Of a DNA stretch of 56,878 nt, positions 638 to 46,298 are shown one piece after another; position 1 is the stretch's first letter; each line of letters begins with the position of its first letter. Made by a program: the position numbers and the translations under genes. The notes beneath the pieces are model-generated. The model did no database searches. It saw only the letters and a program-made list of their open reading frames with translations, and was not told the DNA's origin. The DNA comes from a virus (Duplodnaviria; Caudoviricetes), in the IMG/VR virus record IMGVR_UViG_3300044984_001322, positions 1 to 56,878 of that record. One strand, written 5' to 3'.

Positions 638-690
638 TGGCGCGCCCTACAGGAGTCGAACCTGTGGCCTCAAGATTAGAAGTCTCGCGC
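638..690 (-). other. attP core: 3' portion of tRNA-Arg(UCU)
   Basis: Minus strand GCGCGAGACTTCTAATCTTGAGGCCACAGGTTCGACTCCTGTAGGGCGCGCCA: anticodon arm with TCT, T-arm GGTTCGACTCC, CCA end; 5' half absent; directly downstream of integrase. Confidence 0.9.
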
Positions 691-706
691 AAACCCGCAC
701 AAATGC

Positions 707-1741
707 TCATGTCTCACCCATTTTGTGCGAGTTTTGTGCAGGAATATTCTCAGGAACTATTCTTCCGGCGCGATCAAAAACAGTCATGACATCCTCTGCC
801 TCAACGTGGGCGTAGCGCATGGTGGTCTTGATATCCGCATGGCCTAACGCACGCTGCAATTCTGGAAGGCTTGCACCTTTCATGAGGGCGTGAGTAGCAA
901 ACGTGTGGCGTAGATCGTGGAAGTGGAAATCGTGCATGTCGGCTCTTCTTAGGGCTGCTTCCCAAAGCTTTCTAAAGTTGACCACATCGAACACCCGATC
1001 CTTTGGTTCGCCTACTGGCAAAGTCGATAGCGCCGTCATCAGTGGTGCTGCTATTCGCGTGACCAGTGGCTTGCGACCCTTGGTGCGTGGGATGATGATC
1101 GTCCGCCCGACCATGTCTACTTGATACCATTCCAACTTAAGGACGTTCGCCTTACGAAGGCCAAGACTAACCGCCGCCACAATGATAGGCCGGATGCGTG
1201 GATTGGCTGCTTCTAATAGAACGCCAAGATCAGGTTCACTTGCATAGCGCACCCTTCCCTCATTCTCTTGGACGCGAATGGTTGTCCAATCGATTGATGG
1301 GATGTCGGCTTTGTAGACACGATTAGCGTACCGCATGGCGGCGCGAAGCATGGAGAAATGCCGATTGATAGTGACCAGTGAGATGTCCTTCTTACTGGAG
1401 CTACGAAGCTGCGCGGAAAAGGAAACAAGACTGCGCTCGTTGACCGACATGATGCTTGTGTTCTTTCCCATGATATCCATGAACCTTCGAAAGTAACGGT
1501 CAGTGGCATCACCGCTGTCTAGGTTCCTGCCCTTGTCTTTCCAGTAAACATCTATGACATCACCCAAGCGCCACTGTGCGCCTAGCGGCTCCGCCTTCGC
1601 GCTTTCCTCTGCGATAATCCGAAGCGCAGCCTCTTTAGCTGCGCGTGGCTTGGTTTCTCTGGTACTTTGCCGAAGCAATCGACCATTCACGGTTTCCGTA
1701 AACCAGAGATAAGGTGACCCTTCGCGGGTATAGATTTTCAT
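707..1741 (-). CDS. int: Tyrosine integrase (N-terminal arm-binding region plus catalytic domain)
   Basis: LGLRKANV, HFHDLRHTFAT, LGHADIKTTMRY motifs (R-HxxR-H-Y); adjacent attP. Confidence 0.95.
   Translation of the reverse strand: MKIYTREGSPYLWFTETVNGRLLRQSTRETKPRAAKEAALRIIAEESAKAEPLGAQWRLGDVIDVYWKDKGRNLDSGDATDRYFRRFMDIMGKNTSIMSVNERSLVSFSAQLRSSSKKDISLVTINRHFSMLRAAMRYANRVYKADIPSIDWTTIRVQENEGRVRYASEPDLGVLLEAANPRIRPIIVAAVSLGLRKANVLKLEWYQVDMVGRTIIIPRTKGRKPLVTRIAAPLMTALSTLPVGEPKDRVFDVVNFRKLWEAALRRADMHDFHFHDLRHTFATHALMKGASLPELQRALGHADIKTTMRYAHVEAEDVMTVFDRAGRIVPENIPAQNSHKMGET
721..757. repeat. Putative integrase arm-type sites (TTTTGTGCGAG TTTTGTGCAGGAAT ATTCTCAGGAAC), inside the int 3' end
   Basis: Same TTGTGCAGGAAT motif as 529-562. 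Confidence 0.6.
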
Positions 1742-1774
1742 TGTGCGCTGCTTTCCATAGAGCGTTAGGCATCT

Positions 1775-2074
1775 TTACGCCGCCTTAGCGACTGCATAAT
1801 CCCACTCTTCGTCGGAGACAACTACCCCACGGCCAATGATCTCCGGCTCACGCTCCCACTCAGCTTCGAACTCTAGCTGCTCCAGTGTTCCGGCTGGTTC
1901 GTCATCGAACCGCACGATCTCTGCCAACAGTTCCATGTACAGATCATGATCGATCTGTGGGCGGTCACGAAAGTGCGCAGCGTACCCATTGGCAGCGCGG
2001 TTAACGTTCCAATTGTAGATTGCATCGTTGATGGCGCGAAGGCCAGCGATAGCTGCTTCCATTTCTTTTCTCAT
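1775..2074 (-). CDS. Hypothetical early protein
   Basis: 99-aa ORF, ATGA overlap with upstream gene, GGAG RBS. Confidence 0.75.
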   Translation of the reverse strand: MRKEMEAAIAGLRAINDAIYNWNVNRAANGYAAHFRDRPQIDHDLYMELLAEIVRFDDEPAGTLEQLEFEAEWEREPEIIGRGVVVSDEEWDYAVAKAA

Positions 2075-2259
2075 GTCCGGTTCTCCTTTATGATGCCGCG
2101 CTCAATCAAATCAGCGGCGGTGCGTCCGAAGAAGCCTTGCAACTCATAGGCAAGACCAGTGTCATGCAAGTGCTGCCACGCTTCGACGGTGGTGTCATAG
2201 TCAGCATCCTCAGAGCCTTCAGCAATCGAAACGGCTCTGTAGTTATCCATTTCAGCCAT
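2071..2259 (-). CDS. Small phage protein (AWQHLHDTGLAYELQGFFGRTA)
   Basis: RBS AAGGAG; resembles a widespread small phage protein family (from memory). Confidence 0.8.
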   Translation of the reverse strand: MAEMDNYRAVSIAEGSEDADYDTTVEAWQHLHDTGLAYELQGFFGRTAADLIERGIIKENRT

Positions 2260-2272
2260 TCACTTTCTCCTT

Positions 2273-2323
2273 CTGATTTCATCTGCGCGGCGGAGTCGAA
2301 ACCCCGCCGTCTAGTGATGTCAG
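2273..2323 (-). ncRNA. Conserved junction hairpin, copy A (unassigned RNA motif)
   Basis: CTGA CA TCA CT AGA CGGCGGGG TTTCGA CTCCGCCG CGC AG A TGA AA TCAG; includes the stop codon of the upstream gene. Confidence 0.75.
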
Positions 2324-2625
2324 GCGAACACCCATTCCGTTGGGTATTGGCGGTGGTTTTTAAGCTGCCACTTTTGCAGCACTGGTTCGCCATCATCATC
2401 CTCATCGACTGCGATGTAGGCGACAGTCTTCAGCACCCGTGCGTAGCGGATGCGGTCAGCGACATAGACGATGTGCGGACAGTCAGGGGCGAAGTCGACG
2501 CCTTCGTCTGGCCGGATGGCGTACTCAAACGTGTGGCCGTAGTCGGCCTCAACGAAGCTGCCCAAGATCAGCGGCAGCACTGCGCCGTTGCGAATGTCGG
2601 TGTTGGTATGCGGTGCAAAGCCCAT
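2320..2625 (-). CDS. Hypothetical phage protein (ARVLKTVAYIAVDED motif)
   Basis: 101-aa ORF with AAGGAG RBS. Confidence 0.8.
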   Translation of the reverse strand: MGFAPHTNTDIRNGAVLPLILGSFVEADYGHTFEYAIRPDEGVDFAPDCPHIVYVADRIRYARVLKTVAYIAVDEDDDGEPVLQKWQLKNHRQYPTEWVFA

Positions 2626-2661
2626 GCGCTTTCTCCTTGGAGGCTTGATTGCCTGTCTGCT

Positions 2662-2690
2662 CCACTATCTTATGTATTCTTATGCGTCAA
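2662..2690 (-). promoter_or_regulatory. Putative sigma70-type leftward promoter TTGACG-N17-TAGTGG
   Basis: Near-consensus -35, 17-bp spacer, AT-rich context ahead of the 2625 gene; -10 weak. Confidence 0.5.
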
Positions 2691-2789
2691 CATGCAAAGC
2701 ACATATAATGTTATGTACCGTGACGTAAATGATTAACACAGAACAAAATGCGAACAAAGTTATTTTGCTATCGCGCCGGAGGACGCAAA

Positions 2790-3080
2790 ATGATAAGGCA
2801 TGACAACGCAAACTTAGAAAGAACCGCCGTGGATTTACCAGCCATCGATCACCGCCTTGGGCGGATCGAAGACGAGATGAAATCAATAGCGGAAGCTATG
2901 CGCTTGCTGTCGCGGGTGGACGAACGTCTGCACCGCCATCGCGAAGACATCGACGACCACGAAGACCGTCTAAGGTTGCTTGAAAAGACAGCGACGAACC
3001 AGAGCGGTGCGCTCAAGATGGTAGAGCGTGGAATCTGGTTAGTGGTGACGGTGGGCTTGGCCCTAGTCCAGTTCGCCTAA
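2790..3080 (+). CDS. Coiled-coil protein with C-terminal TM helix (XhlA/holin-like)
   Basis: GGAGG RBS; heptad-rich region then GIWLVVTVGLALVQFA. Confidence 0.7.
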   Translation: MIRHDNANLERTAVDLPAIDHRLGRIEDEMKSIAEAMRLLSRVDERLHRHREDIDDHEDRLRLLEKTATNQSGALKMVERGIWLVVTVGLALVQFA

Positions 3081-3100
3081 AAAATCGGCGGGAAAACCAA

Positions 3101-3133
3101 AGGGGCCGCGATCCACACCGCAGCCCCTCTGTT
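3101..3133. terminator. Hairpin between convergent genes, likely bidirectional terminator
   Basis: AGGGGCCGCG-loop-CGCAGCCCCT; T-rich tail on the minus strand. Confidence 0.6.
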
Positions 3134-3135
3134 AA

Positions 3136-3477
3136 TCATTCTGGATAGAAGCACAGATCGAAGCTGTAGTAGGGTTCAGCGAAGACGCCAACCTGACACA
3201 GCGCATCACTGGCAACGATAGCCCACTCAAAGGGGCCAGCCTCATACGACACGCGCCAGCCGCCACGTTCCTTTCGAGCAAAGCATTCAATGTCAGGGCT
3301 GTGTCCGGTGTCGCTTGCACATTGGCGCAGTACCTCAAGCACAGCGTGAGCGCGTCCCTTGGCTGACTTTCGTGTGACCGCTGCCTTTGCTATCCTCTCA
3401 GATAGATCAGATGCGCCATAGCCGTAGTAGTGGCCTTCATTCTTTCGTGCGTAATCAAGATTGATATCCATAATCAT
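3136..3477 (-). CDS. Hypothetical early protein
   Basis: ORF with AGGAG RBS immediately after hammerhead HH1. Confidence 0.8.
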   Translation of the reverse strand: MIMDINLDYARKNEGHYYGYGASDLSERIAKAAVTRKSAKGRAHAVLEVLRQCASDTGHSPDIECFARKERGGWRVSYEAGPFEWAIVASDALCQVGVFAEPYYSFDLCFYPE

Positions 3478-3490
3478 TCTCCTGTGGTCT

Positions 3491-3543
3491 GTCTCATCAG
3501 TGGCGGTAAACCAACCCCGCCAGACGCCCGAAGGCGTTTCGAC
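3491..3543 (-). ncRNA. Type II hammerhead ribozyme HH1
   Basis: GTC GAAA CGCC TTCG GGCG TC^ TGGCGG [GGTTGGTTTA] CCGCCA CTGATGA GAC; full core; loop TGGTTT can pair with 3' tail AGACCA; predicted cut 3523/3522. Confidence 0.93.
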
Positions 3544-3881
3544 TATTTTACTTTCTCTTGAGCCTCACACAGTGCGAGTGATGCTAGGTGCAGCTTGTGC
3601 GGCAGGGCCAGCTTGTCCCATGCGTCTTGGATGGCGACTGAGTACTCAGTGTAGTTGCGTGGTTCAGTCCGCTGCGCCGGAGCAGTCTGCTCTTGGGGCG
3701 GGGCGGAAACAACCTGAGACACCGAACCACCTACATGATGACGGTTAAGGAATGCCAGTAGACCAGCCTTATCAACTGGAACCTCTGCCTCTTTCCATGT
3801 GGTGGCGTTATCCCTAGCATGCGCCTTCGCGTCAGCCTGAGTGCCTGTCCAGACGCCGTCCGGTGATTGATACAGCTTCAT
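3543..3881 (-). CDS. Hypothetical early protein
   Basis: 112-aa ORF; TAG stop overlaps HH1 stem II. Confidence 0.8.
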   Translation of the reverse strand: MKLYQSPDGVWTGTQADAKAHARDNATTWKEAEVPVDKAGLLAFLNRHHVGGSVSQVVSAPPQEQTAPAQRTEPRNYTEYSVAIQDAWDKLALPHKLHLASLALCEAQEKVK

Positions 3882-4135
3882 GCCGCCTCTCCCCTCTGGA
3901 TTAAGAGCGCCTCTTCAAACAACTCTTCGCGCAATTCATGTAAGACACTAATGCGGTCATGTTGGACTTGGCGGTCAATCATGCACTGCCTCAAATCGCT
4001 TGGGTAATCACGGCCATTTGGCATCGCTTCCCTCAACAGTGTGATGGCATCGTGCAATGCGTCTACGGCTGCACGGCGTGGCTTGATCAGGTCATCCCTG
4101 CTTGAGCCGTTTATATTGATAACGGGCTTGATCAT
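3878..4135 (-). CDS. Hypothetical early protein (PVINING S...PNGRDY)
   Basis: ATGA-coupled ORF with RBS. Confidence 0.8.
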   Translation of the reverse strand: MIKPVININGSSRDDLIKPRRAAVDALHDAITLLREAMPNGRDYPSDLRQCMIDRQVQHDRISVLHELREELFEEALLIQRGEAA

Positions 4136-4329
4136 GCTGCCTCTCCTTCTGCTTTAGAGACTGCATCCCATGCGGCATCCAATGCGGCTCTGAAACTGTC
4201 CGTTCGATACTCTGAGGGCATGTCTTCGTCAGCCTCACAAGCCAGCCATTTCAGGACTTCCAGCAAGTCAGGTGCTGCCGCCATTAGGTTCGCATCTATG
4301 TTGATGCGGGTGTCTATATTCTGTGTCAT
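4132..4329 (-). CDS. Small phage protein with ANLMAAAPDLLE motif
   Basis: Motif common in small phage early proteins; AAGGAAG RBS. Confidence 0.8.
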   Translation of the reverse strand: MTQNIDTRINIDANLMAAAPDLLEVLKWLACEADEDMPSEYRTDSFRAALDAAWDAVSKAEGEAA

Positions 4330-4352
4330 TTCGCTTCCTTTCGCTTTGACCT

Positions 4353-4405
4353 ATCTCATCAGTGACGGCTGGTCAGAACCGTCAGACCCCCGAAGGGGTT
4401 TCGAC
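4353..4405 (-). ncRNA. Type II hammerhead ribozyme HH2
   Basis: GTC GAAA CCCC TTCG GGGG TC^ TGACGG [TTCTGACCAG] CCGTCA CTGATGA GAT; loop TGACC pairs with tail GGTCA; predicted cut 4385/4384. Confidence 0.93.
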
Positions 4406-4407
4406 TA

Positions 4408-4444
4408 GCGGCGGAGCGTGAACCCCGCCGTCCGTTGGTACTAG
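4408..4444 (-). ncRNA. Truncated junction hairpin fused to HH2
   Basis: GGA CGGCGGGG TTCACG CTCCGCCG C is identical to the top of the 6697-6747 copy; lower 3' strand replaced by the hammerhead. Confidence 0.65.
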
Positions 4445-4639
4445 TTAAGAAAAGTCGGATGAGAGGTTGCGGATAAAGTCGAACGCAAACTTGCGCTCGT
4501 TAAAAGACAGCGCCTCATTGTCACCGCGCTCCCGATAGCCGTTGGTCGCCCATTCGGCATCGCCGCCAGTGCGGACTTCACTATAGTCAAGGTCGCCAGC
4601 AAGCGCGGCGGCATATATGTAATTTTCACGGTCAGTCAT
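4445..4639 (-). CDS. Hypothetical early protein
   Basis: 64-aa ORF, AAGGT RBS, fits operon spacing. Confidence 0.6.
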   Translation of the reverse strand: MTDRENYIYAAALAGDLDYSEVRTGGDAEWATNGYRERGDNEALSFNERKFAFDFIRNLSSDFS

Positions 4640-4649
4640 GACATACCTT

Positions 4650-5057
4650 TCAAACGTTCAGTGTGTCGGTTTGGAGGACAAAAACGATCTCAGTGTCATT
4701 GTCGCAATAAGTGCGGCCACCCAAAAGCTGCGGCCTTCCGGCGTAGTAGTTGCCACAGCAATCATGTTCATGCTGGCAGTATTCAGCTTCGATCCAGTAG
4801 TTCATCGCCTCCTTCACCTGTGCCTCAGTGGCATCGCGTGGTACTTTCCAAGCCGTGACCCTGTGGACGGTTTCCCCGTCGATCTCGACGCGAAGGGGGA
4901 GAGAGGCAGAGACCTGATCAAAGCTGATCATCTCATCCTCTTCCTCTTCATCAGCCGGACAGTCTTGCTGCCAGTGGTGGCTTCCGAAGCAACGGTCACA
5001 GAAGTGATCGTCGGCGCTCTCAGTGTGCGGTTCATACGTGTGGTGATTTTCTCTCAT
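4650..5057 (-). CDS. Hypothetical Cys/His-rich acidic protein (CxxC, CQHEHDCCG)
   Basis: AAGGAG RBS right after HH3. Confidence 0.8.
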   Translation of the reverse strand: MRENHHTYEPHTESADDHFCDRCFGSHHWQQDCPADEEEEDEMISFDQVSASLPLRVEIDGETVHRVTAWKVPRDATEAQVKEAMNYWIEAEYCQHEHDCCGNYYAGRPQLLGGRTYCDNDTEIVFVLQTDTLNV

Positions 5058-5078
5058 GTCAGTCTCCTTAAATGACCT

Positions 5079-5134
5079 GTCTCATCAGTAGCTGGGGGTC
5101 AGCCCAAGCTAGACGGCCCGAAGGCCGTTTCGAC
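5079..5134 (-). ncRNA. Type II hammerhead ribozyme HH3
   Basis: GTC GAAA CGGCC TTCG GGCCG TC^ TAGCT [TGGGCTGACCCCC] AGCTA CTGATGA GAC; loop TGACC pairs with tail GGTCA; predicted cut 5112/5111. Confidence 0.93.
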
Positions 5135-5517
5135 TATGCGGTTGTCTCCATCTTATCGATCATTGGCTCCAGTCGATCATAGACTGATTGGCAGTACTCG
5201 TTGTCGGTGTAGTCTCCGATAACGTCATAGCCATCATTGCCGTAGGTCAGTTGGAACCAACCCAGCCGCTTGTTGTCCAAGTCCCTGACCACCAGTTCAT
5301 CACCGTCAGTCGTGAACAATGCATGGCGGATCAGTTTTTCGTCGCGGGAACTTTTGACCGTCCACTCTTCGCTGTCAAAGACCGACAGCGCGTGACCATC
5401 GGCCAACACCTGTTTGACCAGCGCAAAACATATGCGGCGCTCGATCATGATGCGCTTGGCAAGTTTACGCTCGCCGCGCTCAATGGCCTGATCTGCGTAC
5501 TTTTTGAATTCATCCAT
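5134..5517 (-). CDS. Hypothetical early protein (YGNDGYDVIGDY)
   Basis: ORF with GGAG RBS; stop overlaps HH3. Confidence 0.8.
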   Translation of the reverse strand: MDEFKKYADQAIERGERKLAKRIMIERRICFALVKQVLADGHALSVFDSEEWTVKSSRDEKLIRHALFTTDGDELVVRDLDNKRLGWFQLTYGNDGYDVIGDYTDNEYCQSVYDRLEPMIDKMETTA

Positions 5518-5528
5518 AACTGCTCTCC

Positions 5529-5702
5529 TCAAAAGATTGGTTCGATCCGCTCACATGCGGGAAAGTCGCTCTCATACTTAGCGAACATTGGGTGACTTGC
5601 GCCCTTGCAGCCGTAGCCAATAAGGCGGGGCTGGATGACGATAAGGCTGAAGCCGATCAGAATGATCAGACCAGCACAGAAGGTCTTAACTGCATCTTTC
5701 AT
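5529..5702 (-). CDS. Small membrane protein
   Basis: GGAG RBS; N-terminal hydrophobic helix. Confidence 0.6.
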   Translation of the reverse strand: MKDAVKTFCAGLIILIGFSLIVIQPRLIGYGCKGASHPMFAKYESDFPACERIEPIF

Positions 5703-5734
5703 GTCAATCTCCATAAGTGACATTTCGTGGTTGG

Positions 5735-5783
5735 CTGACGCCATCCTCGCCGTGGAGCGAACCCCACGGTCTGGTAGTGTCAG
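5735..5783 (-). ncRNA. Conserved junction hairpin, copy B
   Basis: CTGA CA CTA CC AGA CCGTGGGG TTCG CTCCACGG CGA GG A TGG CG TCAG, 1 nt after the ardC stop. Confidence 0.75.
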
Positions 5784-5784
5784 G

Positions 5785-6666
5785 TCATGCAGCCATCGCC
5801 TGTGGCTGCGCAGCGTTGACCAGATAGTCGACCGCCTTTGTCGCGGCGCTGGCGGCTGACACGAACTCGCGCTTGTGGTCAGACAGCTTTTTCATCCATC
5901 CGTTGAGGTACTTCGCATGATCTGCGCGGGGTGATGCGCTGATGTCCAACGTGGCGCACAGGAACGCCGCACCTAGCTCTGCGACCAGTTCCTCACGGGC
6001 GTAGTCTTCGCTGCCGAAGCCGTTTGCCAGATCACGATCCAAGCGGCTCTTGTGGCCTGTCCAGTGAACCAGTTCGTGGGCCAGTGTGCTGTAAAAGCAC
6101 TCTGAGGCGGTGGACGTTGGTGTCGCCTCAAACACGCCCTTGTTTGGCATGTGGACGCGATCCGTCGATGGGCTGTAGTACGCCTTGCCGACATCTGAAT
6201 AAGTGACGGCGGCAGGGATGTGGCGGAAAAAGTCTTCGGCGGTCACGATCTCAGTCGCACCATCATCATTGGTGGCTGGTGACTGTATCGCCTCTGCAAT
6301 GTCGCCATCCACTTGATCCGCATTGAACACAAAGTACGTGCGCAGCATTGGGATGCTGACATCGTTGCCAGCCTCATCCTTCTTTTTGAAGAACTGCCAG
6401 AACAGTATCTGCGTGGACTTTTCGCCCTTCCGGACTTGGCACTTGCGCTCTGCCCACTGCTTGTATGTACCCCATGTCGCTGAGGTGTGACCGCTCCATC
6501 CCAACAGAATGATGTTGATGCCGCGATACGCTTTTTTGCTGGCGATGTTGCGGGGCGATCCGCCCTGACCCTTGCGGGAGAACGGGTTGATCCAATCAGA
6601 CCCGTGGGTCTCCATCATTTCCAGAACACGCTCTGTGACCTGTGCGTATATGTCGATTTTAGCCAT
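5785..6666 (-). CDS. ardC: ArdC-family antirestriction/ssDNA-binding protein with zincin-like metallopeptidase domain
   Basis: YRGINIILL, WGTYKQW, VFNADQ, HELVHWTGH, YAREELVAELGAAFL motifs. Confidence 0.92.
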   Translation of the reverse strand: MAKIDIYAQVTERVLEMMETHGSDWINPFSRKGQGGSPRNIASKKAYRGINIILLGWSGHTSATWGTYKQWAERKCQVRKGEKSTQILFWQFFKKKDEAGNDVSIPMLRTYFVFNADQVDGDIAEAIQSPATNDDGATEIVTAEDFFRHIPAAVTYSDVGKAYYSPSTDRVHMPNKGVFEATPTSTASECFYSTLAHELVHWTGHKSRLDRDLANGFGSEDYAREELVAELGAAFLCATLDISASPRADHAKYLNGWMKKLSDHKREFVSAASAATKAVDYLVNAAQPQAMAA

Positions 6667-6696
6667 TTCGTTTCCTTTCGTTTTGACTGTTGTTGG

Positions 6697-6747
6697 CTGA
6701 CGCCATTCTCGCGGCGGAGCGTGAACCCCGCCGTCCGATAGTGTCAG
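6697..6747 (-). ncRNA. Conserved junction hairpin, copy C
   Basis: CTGA CA CTA TC GGA CGGCGGGG TTCACG CTCCGCCG CGA GA A TGG CG TCAG, directly after the TAA stop. Confidence 0.75.
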
Positions 6748-7134
6748 TTAGTGGTGGCGCTCGTTAACGAGATCACACTCCCAGCTTTCGATGATCCGCT
6801 TGCGCCATGCGGCTGGCTTTTCGTCCGTCACGTTCGTCGTGAGACCAATGTGCTGGCGGATGTCTTCAAGCGTGTAGGGATCGTCAACGAACTTGCCGCT
6901 GTCGCCCTTCTTGATCCGCACAGCGCCGCGAAGGCGTTCGAACAGTGCGACCCGCTTGTAGAATTCTTTGTAGTTGCTTTCGGTGATCCGGCCAAAGCCC
7001 ACCACCATCGTGGTGAAGATCAGCAATTCAGTGGACTGCGTCAGGCGGCGCTGAGGCTCACCGTTCTCTTCATAGTGATAGAAGCAGACCGTGTTGCTGT
7101 CCGCGATGTTCGAAACGTTCCAATTCAGTGACAT
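6748..7134 (-). CDS. Hypothetical early protein (MSLNWNV...HIGLTTNV)
   Basis: GGAAGGA RBS before ATG 7134. Confidence 0.8.
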   Translation of the reverse strand: MSLNWNVSNIADSNTVCFYHYEENGEPQRRLTQSTELLIFTTMVVGFGRITESNYKEFYKRVALFERLRGAVRIKKGDSGKFVDDPYTLEDIRQHIGLTTNVTDEKPAAWRKRIIESWECDLVNERHH

Positions 7135-7157
7135 GTAGTTTTCCTTCCATTGTGGCA

Positions 7158-7210
7158 CTAGCGCCATAAGTGCCGCGCAGTGGTGAGGTGCGCGGCTGAT
7201 ATGGGGTTAG
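7158..7210 (-). ncRNA. Divergent junction hairpin
   Basis: CTAA CC CCA TA TCA GCCGCGCA loop TGCGCGGC ACT TA TGG CG CTAG; same size and position as the family, different internal loop. Confidence 0.45.
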
Positions 7211-7335
7211 TATCCGCCCGTCAGCGTGATGATGTGAAAGCCCCGCGAGACCTCAGAGGTGAAGGTCAGGCCGCGCTGGACAAGACCAGCAACGGTGTCG
7301 AGAAACTCTTCGTGGGTGGTGCAGTGGATGGTCAT
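7207..7335 (-). CDS. Small protein, 42 aa (MTIHCTTHEEFLDTVAGLVQRGLTF...TLTGGY), absent from the ORF track
   Basis: Manual translation; GGAGG RBS; fills the operon gap. Confidence 0.7.
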   Translation of the reverse strand: MTIHCTTHEEFLDTVAGLVQRGLTFTSEVSRGFHIITLTGGY

Positions 7336-7338
7336 GTC

Positions 7339-7536
7339 TTATGCCCTCCCTTCGCAAGCGGCGTCGAAGTCATCTTGGTAGATTTTCTCCAGTACTGCTT
7401 CGACCAGCCCCAGAGGCACGCTTGTCTCTTGGCTGATGTCCGGCAGGTAGCCGCCTTCGCAGATCATCGTCATGATCGTTGAGATGGTTGCGTTGTCCAT
7501 CAACGACAGGCGGTGGTACATTTGTTCGTCGGTCAT
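7339..7536 (-). CDS. Hypothetical early protein, possibly HTH-like
   Basis: GGAAGGA RBS before ATG 7536. Confidence 0.65.
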   Translation of the reverse strand: MTDEQMYHRLSLMDNATISTIMTMICEGGYLPDISQETSVPLGLVEAVLEKIYQDDFDAACEGRA

Positions 7537-7559
7537 TTCGTGTTCCTTCCATAGTGGCC

Positions 7560-7610
7560 CTGATGCCATCCTCGCAGCGGCTATGGTGGGCCGCTGTCTG
7601 GTGGGGTCAG
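7560..7610 (-). ncRNA. Conserved junction hairpin, copy D
   Basis: CTGA CC CCA CC AGA CAGCGGC CCACCATA GCCGCTG CGA GG A TGG CA TCAG; includes the upstream TGA. Confidence 0.75.
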
Positions 7611-7915
7611 TAATATCCGGCTCGTTCCTCCTGTTCGCGCTGCCACTCTGTGCCGCACTCTCCCAGCCGCTCTTCCAAGCTTTCGGGAAGCTCTGCCTCC
7701 AACCAATGATCCAGATCAACGTGACCGGCGATCATCACCTTGGCGGCGAAGCACTGAGCGTCGAAGCGGTGGCGGAAAGCTTTGGGGTGAACGAACTCTC
7801 CGGCCCACGTTGATGTGGTCACGAAGTAATCGAAGCGGGTGTTGATGCCGTCTTCGCAACGCTCTTCGAAGTACGGGCCTTCGGAGACCCCAACGCCGAT
7901 AACTAAACTTTTCAT
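7607..7915 (-). CDS. First gene of early operon, hypothetical
   Basis: GGAAGGA RBS before ATG 7915. Confidence 0.75.
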   Translation of the reverse strand: MKSLVIGVGVSEGPYFEERCEDGINTRFDYFVTTSTWAGEFVHPKAFRHRFDAQCFAAKVMIAGHVDLDHWLEAELPESLEERLGECGTEWQREQEERAGYY

Positions 7916-8010
7916 GCTGATTTCCTTCCATACTAAAATCACCAGACGGCAGCGGACTGCGGTGTGATGATCCTAGCGGAGACCGAAGCCCCCGTAGGTA
8001 TCAAGCGTTC

Positions 8011-8026
8011 ACAATGTCAAAGATCG
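8011..8026 (-). promoter_or_regulatory. boxA-like antitermination element (CGATCTTTGACATTGT)
   Basis: Resembles rrn/lambda boxA (CGCTCTTT-type) in the leader ~40 nt after the promoter; followed by hairpin 7968-8003. Confidence 0.55.
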
Positions 8027-8065
8027 GGACGGTGGGAGCCTCACGGCGGCGGTGTCTTGGCCTCT

Positions 8066-8094
8066 TCAATACGACCTGTTTTTATATGTGTCAA
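8066..8094 (-). promoter_or_regulatory. Early leftward promoter TTGACA-N17-TATTGA
   Basis: Perfect -35, 17-bp spacer, partial -10. Confidence 0.65.
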
Positions 8095-8299
8095 ACATAA
8101 AAATGCATGTGGCTATAACGTAGGCTGTGCGCGGCTTTAGGTTCTTATACGTTATGTACCGTGATGCACCGAAAGCAGTCTGCCCAAAAAATCGGCGGGA
8201 AAAACCGGAACACCGCGATCCCTTCCCTTCATGTAGAGTAGAGACAATAGACAGTAGGGGATGTATAGAGACCAGACACAAGTAATCGGAATCTATACT

Positions 8300-8758
8300 A
8301 TGAAGAAAGACTACACACCCGAAGCAAAGGGCAAGATCATGGCAAGTGAAATGCCAGACTATATTACGCCGAAGCAGCAAGCGTTCATCCATGCCTACGC
8401 CGCCAATGGGAACAACGGGAGACAGGCAGCGATCTCAGCCGGATATGCACCAGCAAGTGCCCATGTGACCGCCAGCACGATGCTGAAGATGGACAAGATC
8501 AGGAAGCGGATAGAGCCTACACAAGACAAGCAGACAGAGAGGCTGGGGCTTGATGCTGATTGGATCGTCTCCCGTCTGATGAAGGAAGCAGAGAGCGGCG
8601 ACAACTCTGAGGCTGCTCGCGTTCGCGCACTGGAACTGTTGGGCAAAGTCGAAGGCATCTTTGCACCTGACAAGAAACAGATCGAGACCATCAATGGCGG
8701 CGACTTCCTAGCCAATCTGGACATGTCCGACGAAGACGATCCCGACACCCTGCAATAA
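8300..8758 (+). CDS. terS: Terminase small subunit
   Basis: TPKQQAF...NGRQAAISAGY...ALELLGK motifs; start may be 8261. Confidence 0.9.
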   Translation: MKKDYTPEAKGKIMASEMPDYITPKQQAFIHAYAANGNNGRQAAISAGYAPASAHVTASTMLKMDKIRKRIEPTQDKQTERLGLDADWIVSRLMKEAESGDNSEAARVRALELLGKVEGIFAPDKKQIETINGGDFLANLDMSDEDDPDTLQ

Positions 8759-9339
8759 CCACCCCATGCGAGCACGACCCTGACAAGGTTGTGCTTGTTA
8801 TCCCTTGGTTTTTTTCTTGGGCTTTTTTTCTTGGCCTTTTTCTGCGGGCCTTGGCGCGTGGGCTGTGCTGTACGGTGTGCGCACCTGTGCGTGTGCATGC
8901 TGCCTCATCGTGTGCATGCGTATGTGTGCAGGGGGAGGGGGGGGACGTGGTGCAGCGCACCCGCCATCGCCCGTGCGGTTCCATAAGGCCCATGATAAGC
9001 TGTAGCCCTAGAATTGGCACCCTAACCTTTTGCCCCTTCTCTAATAAATGGGGTGGTAAACTTTGAGTCCAAAAATAAAAAAAATATAAAAATCATTTTT
9101 GATGTCTTTTACATAAGACTTATGCGGAAAATTATTCAGTATTGCATCAAGTAAAAAAACAAGTAATCGAACTATTCATGCAAGAAAAAATCATTGGCAT
9201 TTGCCTTCGCTCAAAAAGATTTGAAATTCATTTCTGTTTATCTGTAAACGTATTTGCTGTAGGGCTTGAGTTCTACGACAAGTCTTTTGTTGTTCGTTTT
9301 GGACCGGCTTTCGTTTCTTTATCTTGGGGATGAACAAAC

Positions 9340-9816
9340 ATGATGTGGATGAAGACTGCTCATGAGTCTGTCGGCCTTAAGGAGGTCGTAGGGCCAAAGC
9401 ACAACACGAAGATTCAGGCGTGGCTCTCTAAGCTTGGCGCTTGGTGGAATGACGATGAGACGCCGTGGTGCGGTACATTCGTTGCTCACTGTCTGCGTGA
9501 GGCAGGTCATCCCATTCCCAAGCATTGGTATCGCGCTTTGGGGTGGAAGGAGTACGGTTCGAACCTTCGCCCCACCCATGTATGTGAAGGCGCTATTCTT
9601 GTGTTTTCTCGCGAAGGCGGAGGTCACGTCGGCTTCTATGTAAGCGAAGACCGTTTCTACTACCGTGTGTTGGGCGGCAACCAGAAGAACAGCGTCAACA
9701 TCATGCGTATTGCCAAGAGCCGCTGTGTAGCCATTCGCTGGCCTACAGGCGTACCCGTAACCGGCGTTCCTATCCACGTTGCGACAAACGCTCCTGTCTC
9801 AGGGAATGAGGCGTGA
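9340..9816 (+). CDS. Endolysin, TIGR02594/NlpC-P60-like cysteine peptidase
   Basis: DETPWCGTFV, GGGHVGF, VLGGNQ motifs. Confidence 0.9.
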   Translation: MMWMKTAHESVGLKEVVGPKHNTKIQAWLSKLGAWWNDDETPWCGTFVAHCLREAGHPIPKHWYRALGWKEYGSNLRPTHVCEGAILVFSREGGGHVGFYVSEDRFYYRVLGGNQKNSVNIMRIAKSRCVAIRWPTGVPVTGVPIHVATNAPVSGNEA

Positions 9817-35157: not shown

Positions 35158-38100
35158 ATGCCTGAATATAAGTTTAGTTCTTTCGTAAATTGGGATGGTA
35201 CTCAAAACGAAAGCCAGAACAAAACAAGTACAACGCAGAAGGCAGCACAGCAGAGCCGCCAGCCCGTCGATGAAAATATGGGTGGTTCTGCTATCGAGAC
35301 TTTGCGTGCAAAAGCAAAAAAAGCTGATCAAAACGTCGCCAACATTCAAAGGTCGCGCAAGAACAGCCGCATCTTTGATGCAGTAGAAAGCTTTGGTGAT
35401 TATCTTCCATTTTTTGAAAGCACCACTGAAAGGGTAAAGGCGGATCGCGCTGAGATTGAGACCGACATCCAAGATATCATTCGCTCGCGTGAAGAAATAA
35501 AGCGCAGCGGAGGCTACGGCAAAGGCGGCTATGGCGCTGCTGTAGAGCGTGGTCTTGGCAACCTGCAGTCAATGAAGGGCGGACTTGAGGCCGGTCTTGG
35601 TATTGCAGACGAAGGCAGTATTGGTGATATTCTTCAGGGCCGCGCTCGTGCGCAGGGCGCTGGTGCGCGTAATCAAGCAGAGCAAGAAGCCTACGAAAAG
35701 TTCCAAGCGGCTGATGGAATTATCGGCTCCGCAAAAGAAATCTTCACCAATTTTCGTTTACTGACAAACGTTGCAGTTGAAAGCTTGCCTTCATCTGCTC
35801 CATCTATGGTTGCTGGTGCCGTTGCTGGTGTCGGTGGTTTTGCGGTTGGCGGACCAAAAGGCGCACAGACGGGCGCGAGTATTGGTACTGGACTTGGCAG
35901 CTTTGTTACTGAGTACGGCAACACGATGCTGGAAACGTTTGCTGAGAACGGCGTGGACTTAGATGATCCTAATTCTATTAAGGCTGCACTCGCCGATAAA
36001 GAATTGATGTCAGACGCAAGATGGCGTGGCACTCGTCGTGGTATTGCGGTTGGTGCATTTGATGCAATGTCTGTGGCGCTTGCGGGTAAAATGGGTGGTG
36101 CGCCTGTTGCCAGAACCATCATCGGCGATACTGCAAAGGCAGGGCTCGCACGTAAGGCCACCGGCCTATTGGCGGCTGGCGCGGTAGAAACTGTTGGGCA
36201 AGGAACTCTTGGCGCAGCCGGTGAAGCAGCCGGTCAGTTGGCGGCAGATGGGCGGATCACAAGTCCACAGGACATTGTCGCTGAGTTTGCTGGCGAAATA
36301 CCTTCCGGCGTTGTCGAGTCTATCGGTGGTACAGCGGTACGTCTTGGAGCAGACAGTGCCTCTAGTACTGCGGAGGACGATGAGCTTGCCTCTGCGCTTA
36401 GAGCAAGGGCCGCAGCCAATCCTGTAACGCAAGCCGCTGGTCAAATTGAAGGCCCGAACGTTGGCGAGATGCGTGATCTTGGAAGCGTGCGCGTTGCTGG
36501 TATGACCATGACGCCGACACAGGTTCTTGAGTTTGCGCAGAACAACCAGAGCCAGCCGCGCATTGCCGACATTCTGTCCCAACCCGTTTCAGACGTAACC
36601 AAAGTCGAGCAGGTTGCACGCATCCTAAACGAGCAGGAAGCTGCGCGTGTAGAGCCGGAAGCCGTGAGGCGTATTTCAAGTCTCGTTGGCGGTACTAACC
36701 CCACTAGCCAGAGCCGTCAGTTCATAACAGACGAACTCACTAAGATTGGTGATGAGGTTGTAGCGGCCAGCCCGACATTAAGTGCTATTCGCGATACCAT
36801 TGCCAGCGAAAGGGGCGGCAAGCAATTTGTCGGCACTCTGCGCGGCATCGTAGAGAATTACAGTCCGCCAGCACAACAGGGTGAAACCTTCTTTGCACGG
36901 CCAGAACGTGGCGGCGAAGGCAGCGTTGTTATGACGCCCGACCAGATTGCAGACGAAGCCAAGCGTGAGCGTGATGCGCAGGAAGCATTCCGTCTTGCCG
37001 GTGTCCGCCAGCAACGCTTTGACGAAGCCACAGGAACAGGCGCACAGCGCGAAGACTTGCGTGCCGGAGCACCCGACCCGCAAGCTCAGTTCTTCCTCAA
37101 TCCAGAGGTCTATGGCGAAGCCCTTGGCGGTATCGCTGCTACCATTGTTGGTGCGGAAAACGGCATGGTCCGTATCCAATACGAGTCTCCTACAGAAACT
37201 GGACGTGACGGTCTGCCTGTCACTATCTCTGAGGAAGTTGAGCCTACTGCGATGTTTGACCGCGTCGTTCGTGGCACTGCGCGTATGTCGCAGGAATTAG
37301 CAGGCGATGTCCGCACGCCACGCAGGGGTACTGGCACAAACCTCAACCCACGCAACTCAGTAGATCGCACAAGCACACGCGCACTGGTTCCGACGCAGGA
37401 CGCAGGACTGCCTGCCACAATCTCGCCTACCCGTTTAACGGGCTTTGAAGCAAACACCGACCAGTTGCCGGTGGAAACGCAGAATGCACAAGCAGACCAG
37501 CAAACTCAGCCAAACGTAGAGGGCATACTAGAAGCTCCGCCAGTGACCCCTCAAGCCACGCAAGCAGCGTTGCCTGCTCCAGCGCCACAGCTAGCGTTAC
37601 CTGCTCCTACTCCTACTCCTGCGCCAGTACCGGCTGCAAAGAGAGAGACGCCGCCAGCGCCAAAGGCAGCAGAGCCTGCGGCTACAGAAGAAGATACTGT
37701 AGTTGAGGACGAAGAGGTCGATGTCGACAATGATCCGCGCATGGTTGAGCATAACCAACGGTTTGATGATGCTGTCGAGAGCATACAGGACACTGAGAAC
37801 GCGACAGAGGTTCGTAAGCTTGCCAAGAAGCTGATCAGGGAAGGTGTCGTTGATGAAGATGCCTACGCCGATATAGACGAGAGAATGAAAGATGTCCCCC
37901 TAACAGAGCGTTGGGATGAGGGAATGTCGGCGCTTGAGGACGCAATAGAAGAGCAGAGAGACAACCTTGCCTCTGACATTGAAGAGGAAATCTACAGCGA
38001 AGCAGATGAGAAGGCTTCTGCAAAAGAAGCAGAAAGCACAGATGCGAAGCAGGATGTTCATAACGAACTGACTGATGCTGAGAAGGATGTACTTGCCGAC

Positions 38101-41100
38101 CATTATGGGGAGCCGGAGTACAATGGCGCTGCCAAAACGCGCTTCATTGAAGACTTGGTCACCGCAGTTAACAAAGGTCTGCAGTCGGTAGACAAGAAGA
38201 TCAGGGCCATCGTCAAGCGCATCTCGCTGTTGACCTTGTCTGCCGCTGTTGTCTTCAGCCCAATGTCGCTTACTGGCCCATCCATTCCGCAAGCCAGAGC
38301 GCAAGATATTGCCTACAACGAGACCCTACACCGCGCGGTTCCCGTTGCTGCCCGTGGCAAGATGTCTGTTGGGGCGCAGCGCGTTTACGAAACAATGGCT
38401 CCTGTTGCCACGCAAAACGGCAAGTCATTCTTCATTGCCGATAAGCCCAATGGCATGATCCACGCATTTGCTGCCAATGGTTCCTACATGGCGTCCGCGC
38501 CAAGCCTTTATGGTAAGGCGGCTGGCGATGTGCTGACCGAAGGCCGCAATGAAGCTAATAGTACAGAAGATGTAACCGACAGCGGAAAGGTAACCCCCGC
38601 TGGTACATTCAAGCTAGAGGCTGGCAAAAGCTCCTACACTGGAGGGTATGTTCTATACCTAGTAGACCCCAAGACAGGTGTCGGCGTTGGCGCAAACAAA
38701 GCGGGTGGCGGCGCAATCGTTGCTGTCCATTCTGTATACAACGGAACCACTAGCGAAAACCGTGAAGGCCGTCTCGACACAAATGCGGCCAATGACAATA
38801 AGATCAGCTTCGGCTGCATAAACACTGCCGAAGAGTTCTTCGTAGATAACGTGCGTCCAAACATTGAATCGTTCGATGGCGGCATGGTCTTTGTTATGCC
38901 TGACGATGTCAGCCAGACCGGCAAGTTATTTTCATCCAAGCAGCCGAAGGGTTCGCCAGCAAGCCCGTCAGCGCCAAGCCAGCCTGCCCTTCCGACTGAG
39001 GATGCTGCACGTCCAACGCGCAAAGAACCAGAGCGCCGTGTCGGTGACCAGAAGGACGGCAAGCCAGAAGAAGGAACTACGCAAGAGACCCGATATTCGG
39101 GCCGCACTAATCCAGCCGCAGAAAACGAAACTGTGGCAGACACAGCACTTTCCGACATTGATTATGACGCCGTCATCAATGAGCGGCTGGACAAGATCGC
39201 TGCGCGTGGTGGGCAGGGACGCATTGTTGCCGCTCGCCTTCGCAGCCTATTAAAGCAGAACAACTACGACGCACGTCAACTGTACTATGCTTTCCAGATG
39301 GGGGACGTGGCCTCTCGTATTCTTCCGCAAAATTCGAAGGTCGACATCCTGTTTGTCCCATCGATGAAGGCGAGCAACGCCAACGCTGCCGCAGCTAGTG
39401 GCATTGATGTTGGCTCAGAAGCGGCTGGCTCATACGATGCATACGAGATCAGCCAGAATGGTTTCCGTGGCCTCATCACGCTTTCGCTGAGTGATAACCT
39501 TTTGGGTGTAGCGCGGGAAAACGCTGCGCATGAGGCTTTCCACGTCATTCAAGACATGCTGAAGGTCTATGACCGCCCTGCATACGATGCACTGCAAAAA
39601 TCATTCCGCGACGGCATGACGATTAAAGACTTTGATCCAAGCATTCTGCGCAAGCTGAAGACCCTAACCACCAACGATGACGGAACGAGTGTATATGACT
39701 CGCTCGTCAATGACTTTGGTGACACACCGCTTTCAAGTCTGGAAGCACAGGCGATTGCCTTTGGTGCGTTCGTCGATGCCAAAGATCGTGGGCAGAGCAT
39801 GAAGGGTCTTAAAGCCAGCTTCATCCGTATCGTTGACGCTGTCAGCGGCATGGTTCGTGGCTTGGGTGCTATTCTTCGCAAGGACGGTGTAGCTACACCA
39901 GCCGCCATCTTTGAAGGTTTCCGCTCTGGTAAGTCGCAGGAAAGCCTCACTGAGGCCGCTCCTCTGGCTGGTGAAACTGGACGTACAGAAGAGCAGTACT
40001 CTGGTCGAAAGGAAAAGCCGCCGTACAGCCCACCCAAAATTGGCAAGCAAAAAATTAAGGTTCCTTTGCGTGGGACTTCAACCATTCCGTTTCTCTATGA
40101 CAACGGAGTGGATGAGGTAGAGCAAATGGGCGAAACCTCAATGGCTCTGAAAGATACCGTCAAAGCTATACAGGACCGCGCTCGCGCAAGCCTTCAAGAA
40201 CGCTTTGGAATTGACCGGATCACTGGTCCGAATGAAGAGACGGATGCTTATTTGTCGCAAGCTATTGCGTCAGAAGCTGAGGCGGCTGTCCTAAAAGAGA
40301 GAGCTACTGGAAACCGATCAGCACTCGATTGGTACACAAGCGCAATTGAAAACGCCATTAACGAAGCATCTTCTATCTACCCAATGCTTGCTGATGACGA
40401 TGCAGCAATGGCGCTTAACAACGCGCTTGGCTTTAGAAATAAGGAAGACGCTCGCGTTCTCTTCACTCTTGCGCTTTCTATTACGTCGCAGAACATGAAG
40501 GTTCGCGACAATGCTAGAGCAACTCTTGAGCAGTTCGATTACTTTTTAGAGAACGGCAAGTTTGATCCTTCGCGCTCATACGGAACAAAAGCCCCATCAA
40601 TCTCTGGAAATCTGCGCCTAGCAAACTACAAGCTGGAAAAAGTTTTTGCCGGAAACCCTGCGGACTTTGGCTCGTTTTTAAACACAGAGTTTACGGTCTC
40701 CCAACTTAACAACATTGCAAAAAACATTGGTGATCGCGAAGGCGTTGCACCATTCAAAATCAGTGGAGAGCAAGCATCTGAGACGGTGTACGGTTCAGCA
40801 ATCTTTGGACCAAAGATCGGGAATGGTTTCTACCAAAACCTAAACCGGAACTTCTCACCGGTAACAATCGACCTTTGGTTCATGCGCTTGTGGGGACGGT
40901 TAACTGGAACGCTTGTTGGCAAAGATGCCGCCATTGCAAAGCAAGCGCAGGGTCTTCGTGACGCCATAGCGGAAGATAACCATCCTACCGCAAAGGTTCC
41001 GGACGGTTATGCTGAAATCATAAACGATGTTACTGATGATGAAATGATTGGCGTAGCCGTTCAGATGGCGGCTGATTGGGAGCGTTCTTATAAGGCGCTG

Positions 41101-45094: not shown

Positions 45095-45952
45095 TTATAG
45101 CGTACCTATATTGTCGGCGACACCGCGCAGATGTTCTGTCGAGAGGTGGGCGTAGCGTTGAACCATCCGGTCATCAGACCAGCCGCCCATTTCTCGTACT
45201 GCGGCTGTGTGTGTACCCTTCTGGATATGCCATGATGCCCACGTATGGCGAAGGTCATGCCAGCGGAAGTTATCGATACCGGCTCTCTTCAGCGCCTCTC
45301 TAAATGCACTCGTCCCGCTGCGGTGTACTGGCTTGCCGCCATATACAAAGACCCACTTCTCGTTGCGGTTCTTGGCGATAGACTTTTTGCTCAGTACTTC
45401 CCAAGCTGTGTCGTTCAGTGGGATCGACAGTGGCAGTCCTGTCTTTGCGCCGCTCTTGTGTTTTGTCGGCGGTATCGTGACCATCCGGTTGATAAGGTCG
45501 ACCTCATCCCACTCCAGTTCGCGCACGTTTGCATCGCGCAGTCCTGTCGAGAGAGCAAAGATCACTTTGTCCTTAAGGTGTGGAGGCAGTTCCGCCAGAA
45601 GGCGCTGTGCTTCTTCCTTCTCAATATAGCGAACGCGCTTGGGTTCCTCCATCCGCTTGATCTTGGGGAAGGTATCGATCCACCCCCATTCATCCCGCGC
45701 CACATTGAGGACGGCACGAAAGACTGTCAGGTATCGATTGACGGTAGATACACCCCTGTCTCTCATCAGCTCTTCGCGCATGTCAGACACCACACCTCTG
45801 GTGATGGCGGTCAGTTGCGTGTCTCCAAGTGTTTTTCCGCCAGCATCTAGGGCGGTCAGAACATCCACATAGTGGCGTTCCTGCTTCACCCATTTGCGGT
45901 GATCTCTACCAGCAAGCCATTTCTGCGACGCATCAGTCCAAGTCTTTTCCAT
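45095..45952 (-). CDS. Second tyrosine recombinase lacking an N-terminal arm-binding domain
   Basis: STGLRDANV, WHDLRHTWASW, GGWS...RYAH; GGAGG RBS before ATG 45952. Confidence 0.92.
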   Translation of the reverse strand: MEKTWTDASQKWLAGRDHRKWVKQERHYVDVLTALDAGGKTLGDTQLTAITRGVVSDMREELMRDRGVSTVNRYLTVFRAVLNVARDEWGWIDTFPKIKRMEEPKRVRYIEKEEAQRLLAELPPHLKDKVIFALSTGLRDANVRELEWDEVDLINRMVTIPPTKHKSGAKTGLPLSIPLNDTAWEVLSKKSIAKNRNEKWVFVYGGKPVHRSGTSAFREALKRAGIDNFRWHDLRHTWASWHIQKGTHTAAVREMGGWSDDRMVQRYAHLSTEHLRGVADNIGTL

Positions 45953-45965
45953 AAAGCCTCCATTC

Positions 45966-46298
45966 TTAAGCTGTCTTTTTGATGGCGTTATCCCTAACCA
46001 GCTTGTAGTTTCGGGGAGCAGCAAAGCCTAAACGCGCAGACATAGCACTCTCTCCAGCACTCTGCTTCAGCACATCAACGAGAACAATCTGCAGGACATT
46101 GTCGAGTACATAGTCATCGTTAAGCGAAAGGCGCAGAATCTGTGTAGACCCATCTTTGCGCGTGATCGTCATGCTCACATGCATGCCGTCAGTAATCTCG
46201 TCGACGCGGATCGCGTGATCAAACGTCTGCTCAAAGTCTTCGGTAAGAGACGTGCCTCCGTAGATAGCTGTCCCTTCCTTTCGAACCATTAGCAACAT
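45966..46298 (-). CDS. Hypothetical protein
   Basis: 110-aa ORF in operon. Confidence 0.65.
   Translation of the reverse strand: MLLMVRKEGTAIYGGTSLTEDFEQTFDHAIRVDEITDGMHVSMTITRKDGSTQILRLSLNDDYVLDNVLQIVLVDVLKQSAGESAMSARLGFAAPRNYKLVRDNAIKKTA

Follow-up and report, generated by a model that had tools for sequence, protein, structure and literature searches.

What are self-cleaving ribozymes doing between the genes of a phage operon? The question is raised by IMGVR_UViG_3300044984_001322, an IMG/VR virus record that is complete, measures 56,878 bp and has direct terminal repeats (the window, meaning this whole stretch of DNA), in which three type II hammerhead ribozymes lie between cistrons within 1.65 kb, separated by two and three open reading frames (ORFs) and all in the sense orientation, the minus strand being the coding strand. 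The purpose of hammerheads was still listed as unresolved in the available part of a 2019 review (PMC6765202). Our results suggest that in this phage they probably divide a polycistronic messenger into defined pieces, and that at least one of them occupies a site where a close relative carries a different RNA hairpin.

The Hammerhead_II model of Rfam (RF02276, gathering score 37 bits; searched with cmscan) matched all three elements (Table 1). This search had been proposed by the initial annotation of the locus, and its outcome is positive for every element, with the middle one (31.9 bits) under the cut-off at an E-value of 7.1e-4 in a 3-kb search and 0.014 over the whole window. At E<=1, no hammerhead beyond these three and no other ribozyme family was matched on either strand of the window. 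Likewise, the core pattern CGAAAC..GTC..CTGATGAG occurs three times in the window and never in 100 dinucleotide-preserving shuffles. The full core that had been claimed for the three sense-strand elements is there in every copy: CUGAUGA, GAAA, the A15.1-U16.1 and G10.1-C11.1 pairs, and the GUC triplet (non-G end). The cmscan alignments give the type II permutation throughout, with stems I and III closed by loops and the RNA ends leaving through stem II, which has three pairs (GUC/GAC in hammerheads 1 and 3; in hammerhead 2, GUC/GAU, which includes a U-G pair). The stem III loop is UUCG in all three while the stem sequences differ, and stem I varies among copies with its pairing kept, a G-C pair of copy 1 being replaced by A-U in copy 2. 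Stems I and III thus differ and stay paired in all copies, as first described. The same is true of the pseudoknot between loop I and the 3' tail, which consists of UGGUUU/AGACCA in hammerhead 1 (six pairs, one of them G-U) and UGACC/GGUCA in hammerheads 2 and 3 (five pairs in each). The cut sites that we computed coincide with those given by the initial annotation, whose intervals (3491-3543 for hammerhead 1, and so on) located the elements correctly but stop at stem II, omitting the pseudoknot tails by up to 8 nucleotides (nt). Because of the covariance-model matches, the intact core and the covariation, we take the three elements to be genuine type II hammerheads with a loop I/tail pseudoknot.

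Could they be inactive relics that merely resemble hammerheads? The subthreshold score of hammerhead 2 would fit such a view. Relics would hardly be expected to show what is seen here, namely no deviation from the core in any copy, intact pairs adjoining it, and a pseudoknot maintained with one sequence in copy 1 and another in copies 2 and 3, and we consider decay of this kind highly unlikely.

Table 1. Ribozymes, hairpin modules and genes of the window. Positions on the minus strand of RNA elements run from the 5' to the 3' end. R1 and R2 are our own covariance models of the hairpin module; L004 is a related contig described in the text.
Feature	Position	Strand	Remarks
Hammerhead 1	3544-3483	-	RF02276, 40.7 bits (above 37); predicted cut 3523/3522; pseudoknot tail 3490-3485 pairs with loop I
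Hammerhead 2	4406-4345	-	RF02276, 31.9 bits (below 37); core intact; predicted cut 4385/4384
Hammerhead 3	5135-5071	-	RF02276, 39.8 bits (above 37); predicted cut 5112/5111
ORF upstream of hammerhead 3	5134-5532	-	132 amino acids (aa); phrog_5680, unknown function
ORFs between hammerheads 3 and 2	4650-5057 (135 aa), 4445-4639 (64 aa)	-	Cassette absent from L004
ORFs between hammerheads 2 and 1	4132-4329, 3878-4135, 3543-3881	-	4-nt overlaps between their ends, as expected within an operon
Last ORF of the unit, downstream of hammerhead 1	3136-3477	-	113 aa
ArdC-type anti-restriction gene, two genes upstream of hammerhead 3	5785-6666	-	Pfam ArdcN 5.8e-29, MPTase-PolyVal 7.6e-42; phrog_7245
Hairpin and U-rich run	3131-3092	-	15 pairs, -29.1 kcal/mol, z -3.6
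Module A	7611-7552	-	R1 66.8, R2 69.4 bits; stop UGA of ORF 7607-7915 in lower stem
Module B, divergent	7211-7150	-	R1 57.9 bits; stop UAA in lower stem, compensating C-to-U on 3' strand
Module C, before ArdC gene	6748-6689	-	R1 72.6 bits
Module D, after ArdC gene	5784-5727	-	R1 69.8 bits
Half copy, upper stem only, joined to 5' end of hammerhead 2	4434-4405	-	R1 19.1, R2 24.3 bits (partial); 36-nt repeat with 6708-6743
Module F, next unit towards integrase	2324-2265	-	R1 44.5, R2 63.6 bits; outside seed alignment
Small terminase	8261-8758	+	Pfam Terminase_2
Lysozyme-like protein	9340-9816	+
Integrase	707-1741	-
Second tyrosine recombinase	45095-46024

The position of the ribozymes is as regular as their structure. 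Hammerheads 1 and 3 take their first two nucleotides from the UAG that stops ORF 3543-3881 and ORF 5134-5532, respectively, and so begin inside the upstream stop, as had been noticed at the outset; a UAG also precedes hammerhead 2, but there the upstream ORF stops elsewhere (it ends at 4445). At the other end, the ribosome-binding site (RBS) follows closely, again in agreement with the earlier description: from each pseudoknot tail to a Shine-Dalgarno (SD)-like run (GGAG at 3482-3479 for hammerhead 1, AAGGAAG for hammerhead 2, AAGGAG for hammerhead 3) the gap is 0-8 nt, and the start codons lie at 3477, 4329 and 5057, respectively.

This arrangement is not peculiar to the window. The exact core pattern GTCGAAAC..GTCT..CTGATGAG is found in at least 120 IMG/VR stretches, and the stretches listed, together with the window and contig L004 (~94% identical to the window over the region), gave 139 matches, 133 of them distinct, a sample biased by the pattern and by the listing. 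Among these matches, 110 loci have one hammerhead, nine have two, two have three and one has five. An open frame of at least 40 codons ends no more than 30 nt upstream of 116 of the 133 distinct hammerheads, the UAG overlapping the ribozyme as in the window in 43 of those 116, and an SD-like run with a start codon lies within 60 nt downstream, also in 116 of 133; the start codon lies a median of 25 nt away from the end of CUGAUGAG. As read from these matches, the succession of stop codon, type II hammerhead, RBS and start codon is common in phage contigs. In the locus with five, L037 (8754-11315 of IMGVR_UViG_3300008255_000242), the type II hammerheads share this core and lie inside 2.6 kb, an SD and a start codon coming after each one; this array is larger than that of the window.

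The same collection speaks for the pseudoknot. At least five contiguous pairs between loop I and the tail can form in 53% of the 133 distinct hammerheads with their own tails and in 17.5% with permuted tails. We also aligned 35 of the 45 listed sequences passing a length filter (passed by 71 of 132), leaving out ten near-duplicate rows (L017, L024, L031, L040, L058, L068, L072, L074, L081 and L087). In this alignment 89.8% of cells are paired, against 70.3% after shuffling (none of 500 shuffles reached the observed value), and covariation scores 0.505, compared with 0.168 after shuffling; pairing in the pseudoknot helix amounts to 76.6%, each of its five pairs showing changes on both sides, and all these figures are lowered by two rows misaligned in stem III and by some that are out of register in loop I.

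The frequent overlap with a stop codon raises the possibility that cleavage is conditional. A ribosome terminating at the overlapping stop would block stem II and the core, and the RNA cut would mostly be that whose upstream gene is untranslated, which would tune the expression of downstream genes. The overlap in two of the three hammerheads here and in 43 of the 133 listed matches would agree with this, as would the presence of a stop within 30 nt in 116 of them, and regulated cutting of phage hammerheads is raised in the available text of Perreault et al. (2011, PMC3088659). However, the overlap may reflect tight packing, since positions 1 and 2 of the model are A and G, and the same text describes pseudoknot-stabilised type II hammerheads as fast at physiological Mg2+. 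Overall, we judge conditional cleavage to be improbable.

From the family membership, the intact core, the covariation and the stop-to-RBS position observed here, we infer that the intercistronic hammerheads probably cut the polycistronic phage messenger by themselves into defined pieces. The initial annotation had reached a similar view, which is the standard one, and its protein-free cutting fits the tested behaviour of the family as given in the available parts of two reports (PMC3088659, PMC8782182); its placing of the cut RNA among early transcripts is no more than plausible. Each hammerhead would fold as the RNA leaves the polymerase, stems I and III forming as hairpins, the three-pair stem II closing the core, and the 3' tail pairing with loop I and thus locking stems I and II side by side. 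The RNA would then cut itself 3' of the GUC triplet. On the upstream piece, the stem III hairpin and a terminal 2',3'-cyclic phosphate would come just past the stop codon; the downstream piece would start with a 5'-OH, followed by the stem I hairpin, and would have its own RBS 35-45 nt from that end. As a consequence, each segment could have a stability of its own and a standard 5' leader independent of the upstream gene, and expression of the gene blocks would be uncoupled.

Cyclic-phosphate and 5'-OH ends are ligatable in principle, and a pair of hammerheads might release an RNA segment that is then joined into a circular or spliced RNA. This idea was considered by Perreault et al. (PMC3088659), where, as far as the available text goes, such products were not detected. 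In the window the segments between ribozymes are ordinary protein-coding cistrons, each with an SD, and no joint was seen in the contigs examined, which are mostly DNA and make this a weak argument; we regard the formation of such RNAs as extremely unlikely. In four runs compared with the region, the sole contig from an RNA library (238 nt, 3254-3491, depth 3.4) ends 31 nt from the predicted cut, and being a contig it is uninformative on transcription or cleavage. An apparent junction at 4434 in run X2 was rejected, as it is merely the repeated hairpin copy at 6720.

Some of our observations weigh against a processing role. Hammerhead 2 misses the Rfam cut-off (31.9 versus 37 bits). Minimum free energy folds recover the stem I and III hairpins, but the folds are no more stable than those of shuffled sequences (z -0.5 to -1.2). 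The promoter and terminator that would delimit the transcript were assigned by eye, and consensus scans are at chance level. Finally, a given junction can do without its ribozyme: L004 has no hammerhead 3, and six other contigs contain homologs of ORF 3136-3477 (at 41-87% identity) that abut their upstream genes, with no hammerhead found in front of them at E<=0.01.

The comparison with L004 shows how closely these elements follow the joints between gene blocks. Homology between the two contigs breaks exactly where hammerhead 3 begins, at window position 5135, and is regained at the module before hammerhead 2. In place of hammerhead 3 (5135-5071), after the stop codon of the same gene, L004 has a hairpin module of type B (L004 6399-6461), followed by a different ORF of ~290 aa, and then by the half module and an ortholog of hammerhead 2 (7390-7451, 34.6 bits) with core and pseudoknot kept. 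Directly after this ortholog comes the homolog of ORF 3878-4135, ORF 4132-4329 being absent. Further upstream, L004 lacks window 7543-7198, with two small ORFs, and here the joint falls inside a hybrid A/B module (L004 4324-4383, corresponding to window 7611-7150). The swap in L004 and the hammerhead-free homologs of ORF 3136-3477 indicate that ribozymes are optional at a given junction and coincide with recombination joints. Because the L004 hairpin occupies the exact site of hammerhead 3, hammerhead and hairpin module look interchangeable, and both mark joints of a gene mosaic. A natural exchange of this kind at one junction, together with a cassette layout defined to the nucleotide, could make the function of phage hammerheads testable.

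These joints are also what favours a view in which hammerheads are mainly boundary elements of gene cassettes, short conserved modules that would spread and be kept because they offer junction homology for the recombination of gene blocks, with cleavage incidental. The break at 5135 and the return of homology at the module before hammerhead 2, with one of the following genes missing, and the deletion joint of 7543-7198 inside a hybrid module would all be expected, and the available part of PMC3088659 indicates that the genes flanked by hammerheads are not constant. Still, a boundary role alone would not keep every catalytic nucleotide in three copies out of three, nor covarying pseudoknots, and the strict sense orientation and the stop-to-RBS spacing point to a function at the RNA level. 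We therefore find it rather unlikely as the main role, with the proviso that marking boundaries and cutting messengers are not mutually exclusive.

If the hammerheads process a messenger, what does it contain? The minus-strand unit spans ~5 kb, roughly from 8090 to 3090; it points away from the small-terminase gene, stops short of the integrase unit, and does not adjoin the recombination/replication control region near 48.5 kb. Its start seems to lie near 8090, where TTGACA (8094-8089) and TATTGA, 17 nt apart, can be read by eye. The 3092-3131 hairpin is probably the intrinsic terminator ending the unit. In consensus scans, promoter and terminator sites were no commoner than in shuffles, and neither TTGACA/TATTGA nor this hairpin was listed. 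In order of transcription, ORF 7607-7915 is followed by module A, ORFs 7339-7536 and 7207-7335 by module B, ORF 6748-7134 by module C, the ArdC gene by module D, and ORFs 5529-5744 and 5134-5532 by hammerhead 3. Then come the two ORFs of the 4650-5057/4445-4639 cassette, the half module with hammerhead 2, three ORFs, hammerhead 1, ORF 3136-3477 and the terminator-like hairpin. The initial annotation called this an early operon. Since it holds an anti-restriction gene of ArdC type, early expression is plausible, but no more than that. Beyond the unit lie a plus-strand ORF (2748-3080) and a second minus-strand unit, with ORF 2320-2625, module F, further ORFs and the integrase. Two blocks are repeated around these units: CACGGTACATAAC at 8163-8151 and 2722-2710 (minus strand), upstream of both minus-strand units, and the U-rich GGTTTT..CCCGCCGATTTTTT at 8206-8182 and 3098-3075 (minus strand). 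Possibly these blocks are operator/promoter and terminator-proximal sequences that the units share.

The hairpin module that shares this unit with the hammerheads is ~58 nt long and imperfectly paired. Its lower stem of ~8 pairs, usually with one mismatch, is followed by three pairs with a bulged A, by an internal loop that hardly varies (5' side RGA, 3' side CGA and then GGAU) with a closing C-G pair, and by a variable upper stem of 5-8 pairs. Model R1, built from ten sequences, found a fifth copy in the window and further copies in five other phage records, with one to three per record. In the 18 matches (17 distinct), 90.1% of cells are paired against 75.2% after shuffling (a value that none of 500 shuffles reached), pairing in the upper stem is complete (100%) and both-sided changes occur in 15 of 18 pairs, figures that are somewhat overstated, as 15 pairs were fitted to the model and the sequences are related. 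Compensatory cases include L163/L189, where the lower stem differs throughout, and L333, where G-C replaces the closing C-G pair, and the modules fold far more stably than shuffles (z -2.9 to -5.0). Like the hammerheads, they sit between a stop and a start. In 12 of the 18, an upstream frame of at least 40 codons stops at the UGA or UAA in positions 2-4 of the lower stem, the stop lies 2-3 nt upstream in five, and none is found in the remaining, degenerate copy; an SD-like run and a start codon follow in all 18.

Over every copy of the window and the five other phage loci, cmscan found no family of Rfam 15, either at the gathering score or at E<=10. The module may thus be an undescribed RNA family, and it is in any case a candidate for one. 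By inspection, the conserved positions do not fit a kink-turn, a tRNA-like structure or a hammerhead variant, readings that we rejected. Judged by model searches, the module is not generally linked to hammerheads: R2 gave only one weak match (21 bits, L062) in ~120 loci selected for hammerheads (L011-L130), and Hammerhead_II matched none of the five other module-bearing phage records. A search for the module by 16-mers returned mostly chance matches, with the motif recognised by eye in six of 120 matches (five loci) and, with a stricter pattern, in six contigs. Two R1 matches of 27-29 bits, in two of 141 genomes of the Sphingorhabdus family, have no loop consensus and were taken as false. A partner protein encoded by the phages themselves is unlikely, at the sensitivity of our blastp comparison, because the records that carry the module have almost no proteins in common with the window: at E<1e-5 no common protein was found between the window and the five others, except one weak match of a replication protein (27% over 221 aa).

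As to what the module does, we tentatively, and with somewhat less than even confidence, think of a processing site for a host nuclease of RNase III type, which would do the same work as a hammerhead. An ordinary site of this type would poorly explain why phages that are otherwise unrelated have an invariant loop in common. A hairpin that is left uncut and stabilises the RNA or couples translation is possible, if rather doubtful. That it acts at the DNA level or as a protein-binding site seems to us quite unlikely, and a new class of self-cleaving RNA would be more unlikely still.

The phage is temperate and podovirus-like. In addition to the genes of Table 1, it encodes a large terminase, portal/adaptor, major head protein, internal virion protein and tail fibre, as well as a YqaJ exonuclease, a Sak annealing protein, a primase/helicase and a ribonucleotide reductase. 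The genome combines T7-like internal-virion and adaptor genes with two tyrosine recombinases, and an ORF of 3,291 aa at 35158-45033 (+) has a C-terminal LPD38 domain (large polyvalent protein). A tRNA-like fragment at 641-698 (-) adjoins the integrase, and this 3' part of a tRNA-Arg(UCU)-like sequence is probably attP. A 49-nt stretch of it, from the anticodon arm to CCA, is found exactly in 80 genome stretches, whose titles are mostly Sphingorhabdus and other Sphingomonadales, with a few other groups. Because of these matches, which are only a hint, the host is probably a freshwater sphingomonad. The search for runs holding the region returned 23 DNA-type runs and one metatranscriptome (5% of sampled words), and the DNA runs are labelled as lake, freshwater and some marine metagenomes. 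The integrase has no relative among the genome contigs in a search for prophages in named genomes. Hammerhead_II was found in none of five Sphingorhabdus-type genomes and in one of 141 sampled genomes of the Sphingorhabdus family, in which only 33 first-look candidates were scored per genome. Against known phages, megablast of 1700-9300 gave only a 57-nt match, to two Streptomyces phages (four records). This stretch, 1786-1842, is 89% identical to phages R4 and phiELB20.

How do these elements compare with known systems? Relative to RF02276 there is no structural difference: topology, core, GUC triplet and a pseudoknot of 5-6 pairs directly after stem II are the same, the middle copy standing out by its 31.9 bits and the U-G pair in stem II. 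In the T7 early transcript, RNase III cuts between cistrons and leaves a 3' hairpin on the upstream piece; these cuts need a host protein and produce 3'-OH and 5'-phosphate ends. The resemblance of the hammerheads to such sites, which the initial annotation had drawn, is thus an analogy of function only, and it is the hairpin module that resembles them more. Synthetic insulators of RiboJ type have a self-cleaving hammerhead before the RBS, which removes the upstream context and leaves a 5' hairpin. Being engineered and of a different hammerhead permutation, they offer a functional analogy and not evidence.

The closest precedents are natural. According to the available text of Perreault et al. 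(2011, PMC3088659), type II hammerheads with a loop I/tail pseudoknot, shown by mutation to be needed for speed, and multiple hammerheads flanking prophage genes have been described, and the triple arrays of Agrobacterium tumefaciens, Azorhizobium caulinodans and Clostridium scindens cleave in vitro, that of A. tumefaciens, which flanks ardA, also in E. coli. Like the window, these arrays have three ribozymes flanking single genes or short blocks, and an anti-restriction gene in the operon. They differ in that ardA is flanked directly, whereas here the gene is of ArdC type and lies two genes upstream of the first ribozyme, and in that theirs were seen to cleave in experiments, whereas ours are known from the sequence of an uncultured lake phage, probably of Sphingomonadales. 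In Desulfovibrio vulgaris, three type II hammerheads near phage-like genes had their in vivo cleavage ends captured by cyPhyRNA-seq in 2021 (PMC8782182). Type, neighbourhood and end chemistry are those found or expected here, the organism is another one, and two of its three hammerheads are close together and, in the available part of that report, are not described as intercistronic punctuation. Phage operons with several hammerheads, and their reading as messenger-processing elements, have thus been known since 2011 (PMC3088659, as far as its available text goes), and the window is a new example of them. The recurrence of its stop-to-RBS layout, in 116 of the 133 listed hammerheads, supports the idea that hammerheads may act as intercistronic processing or insulating elements.

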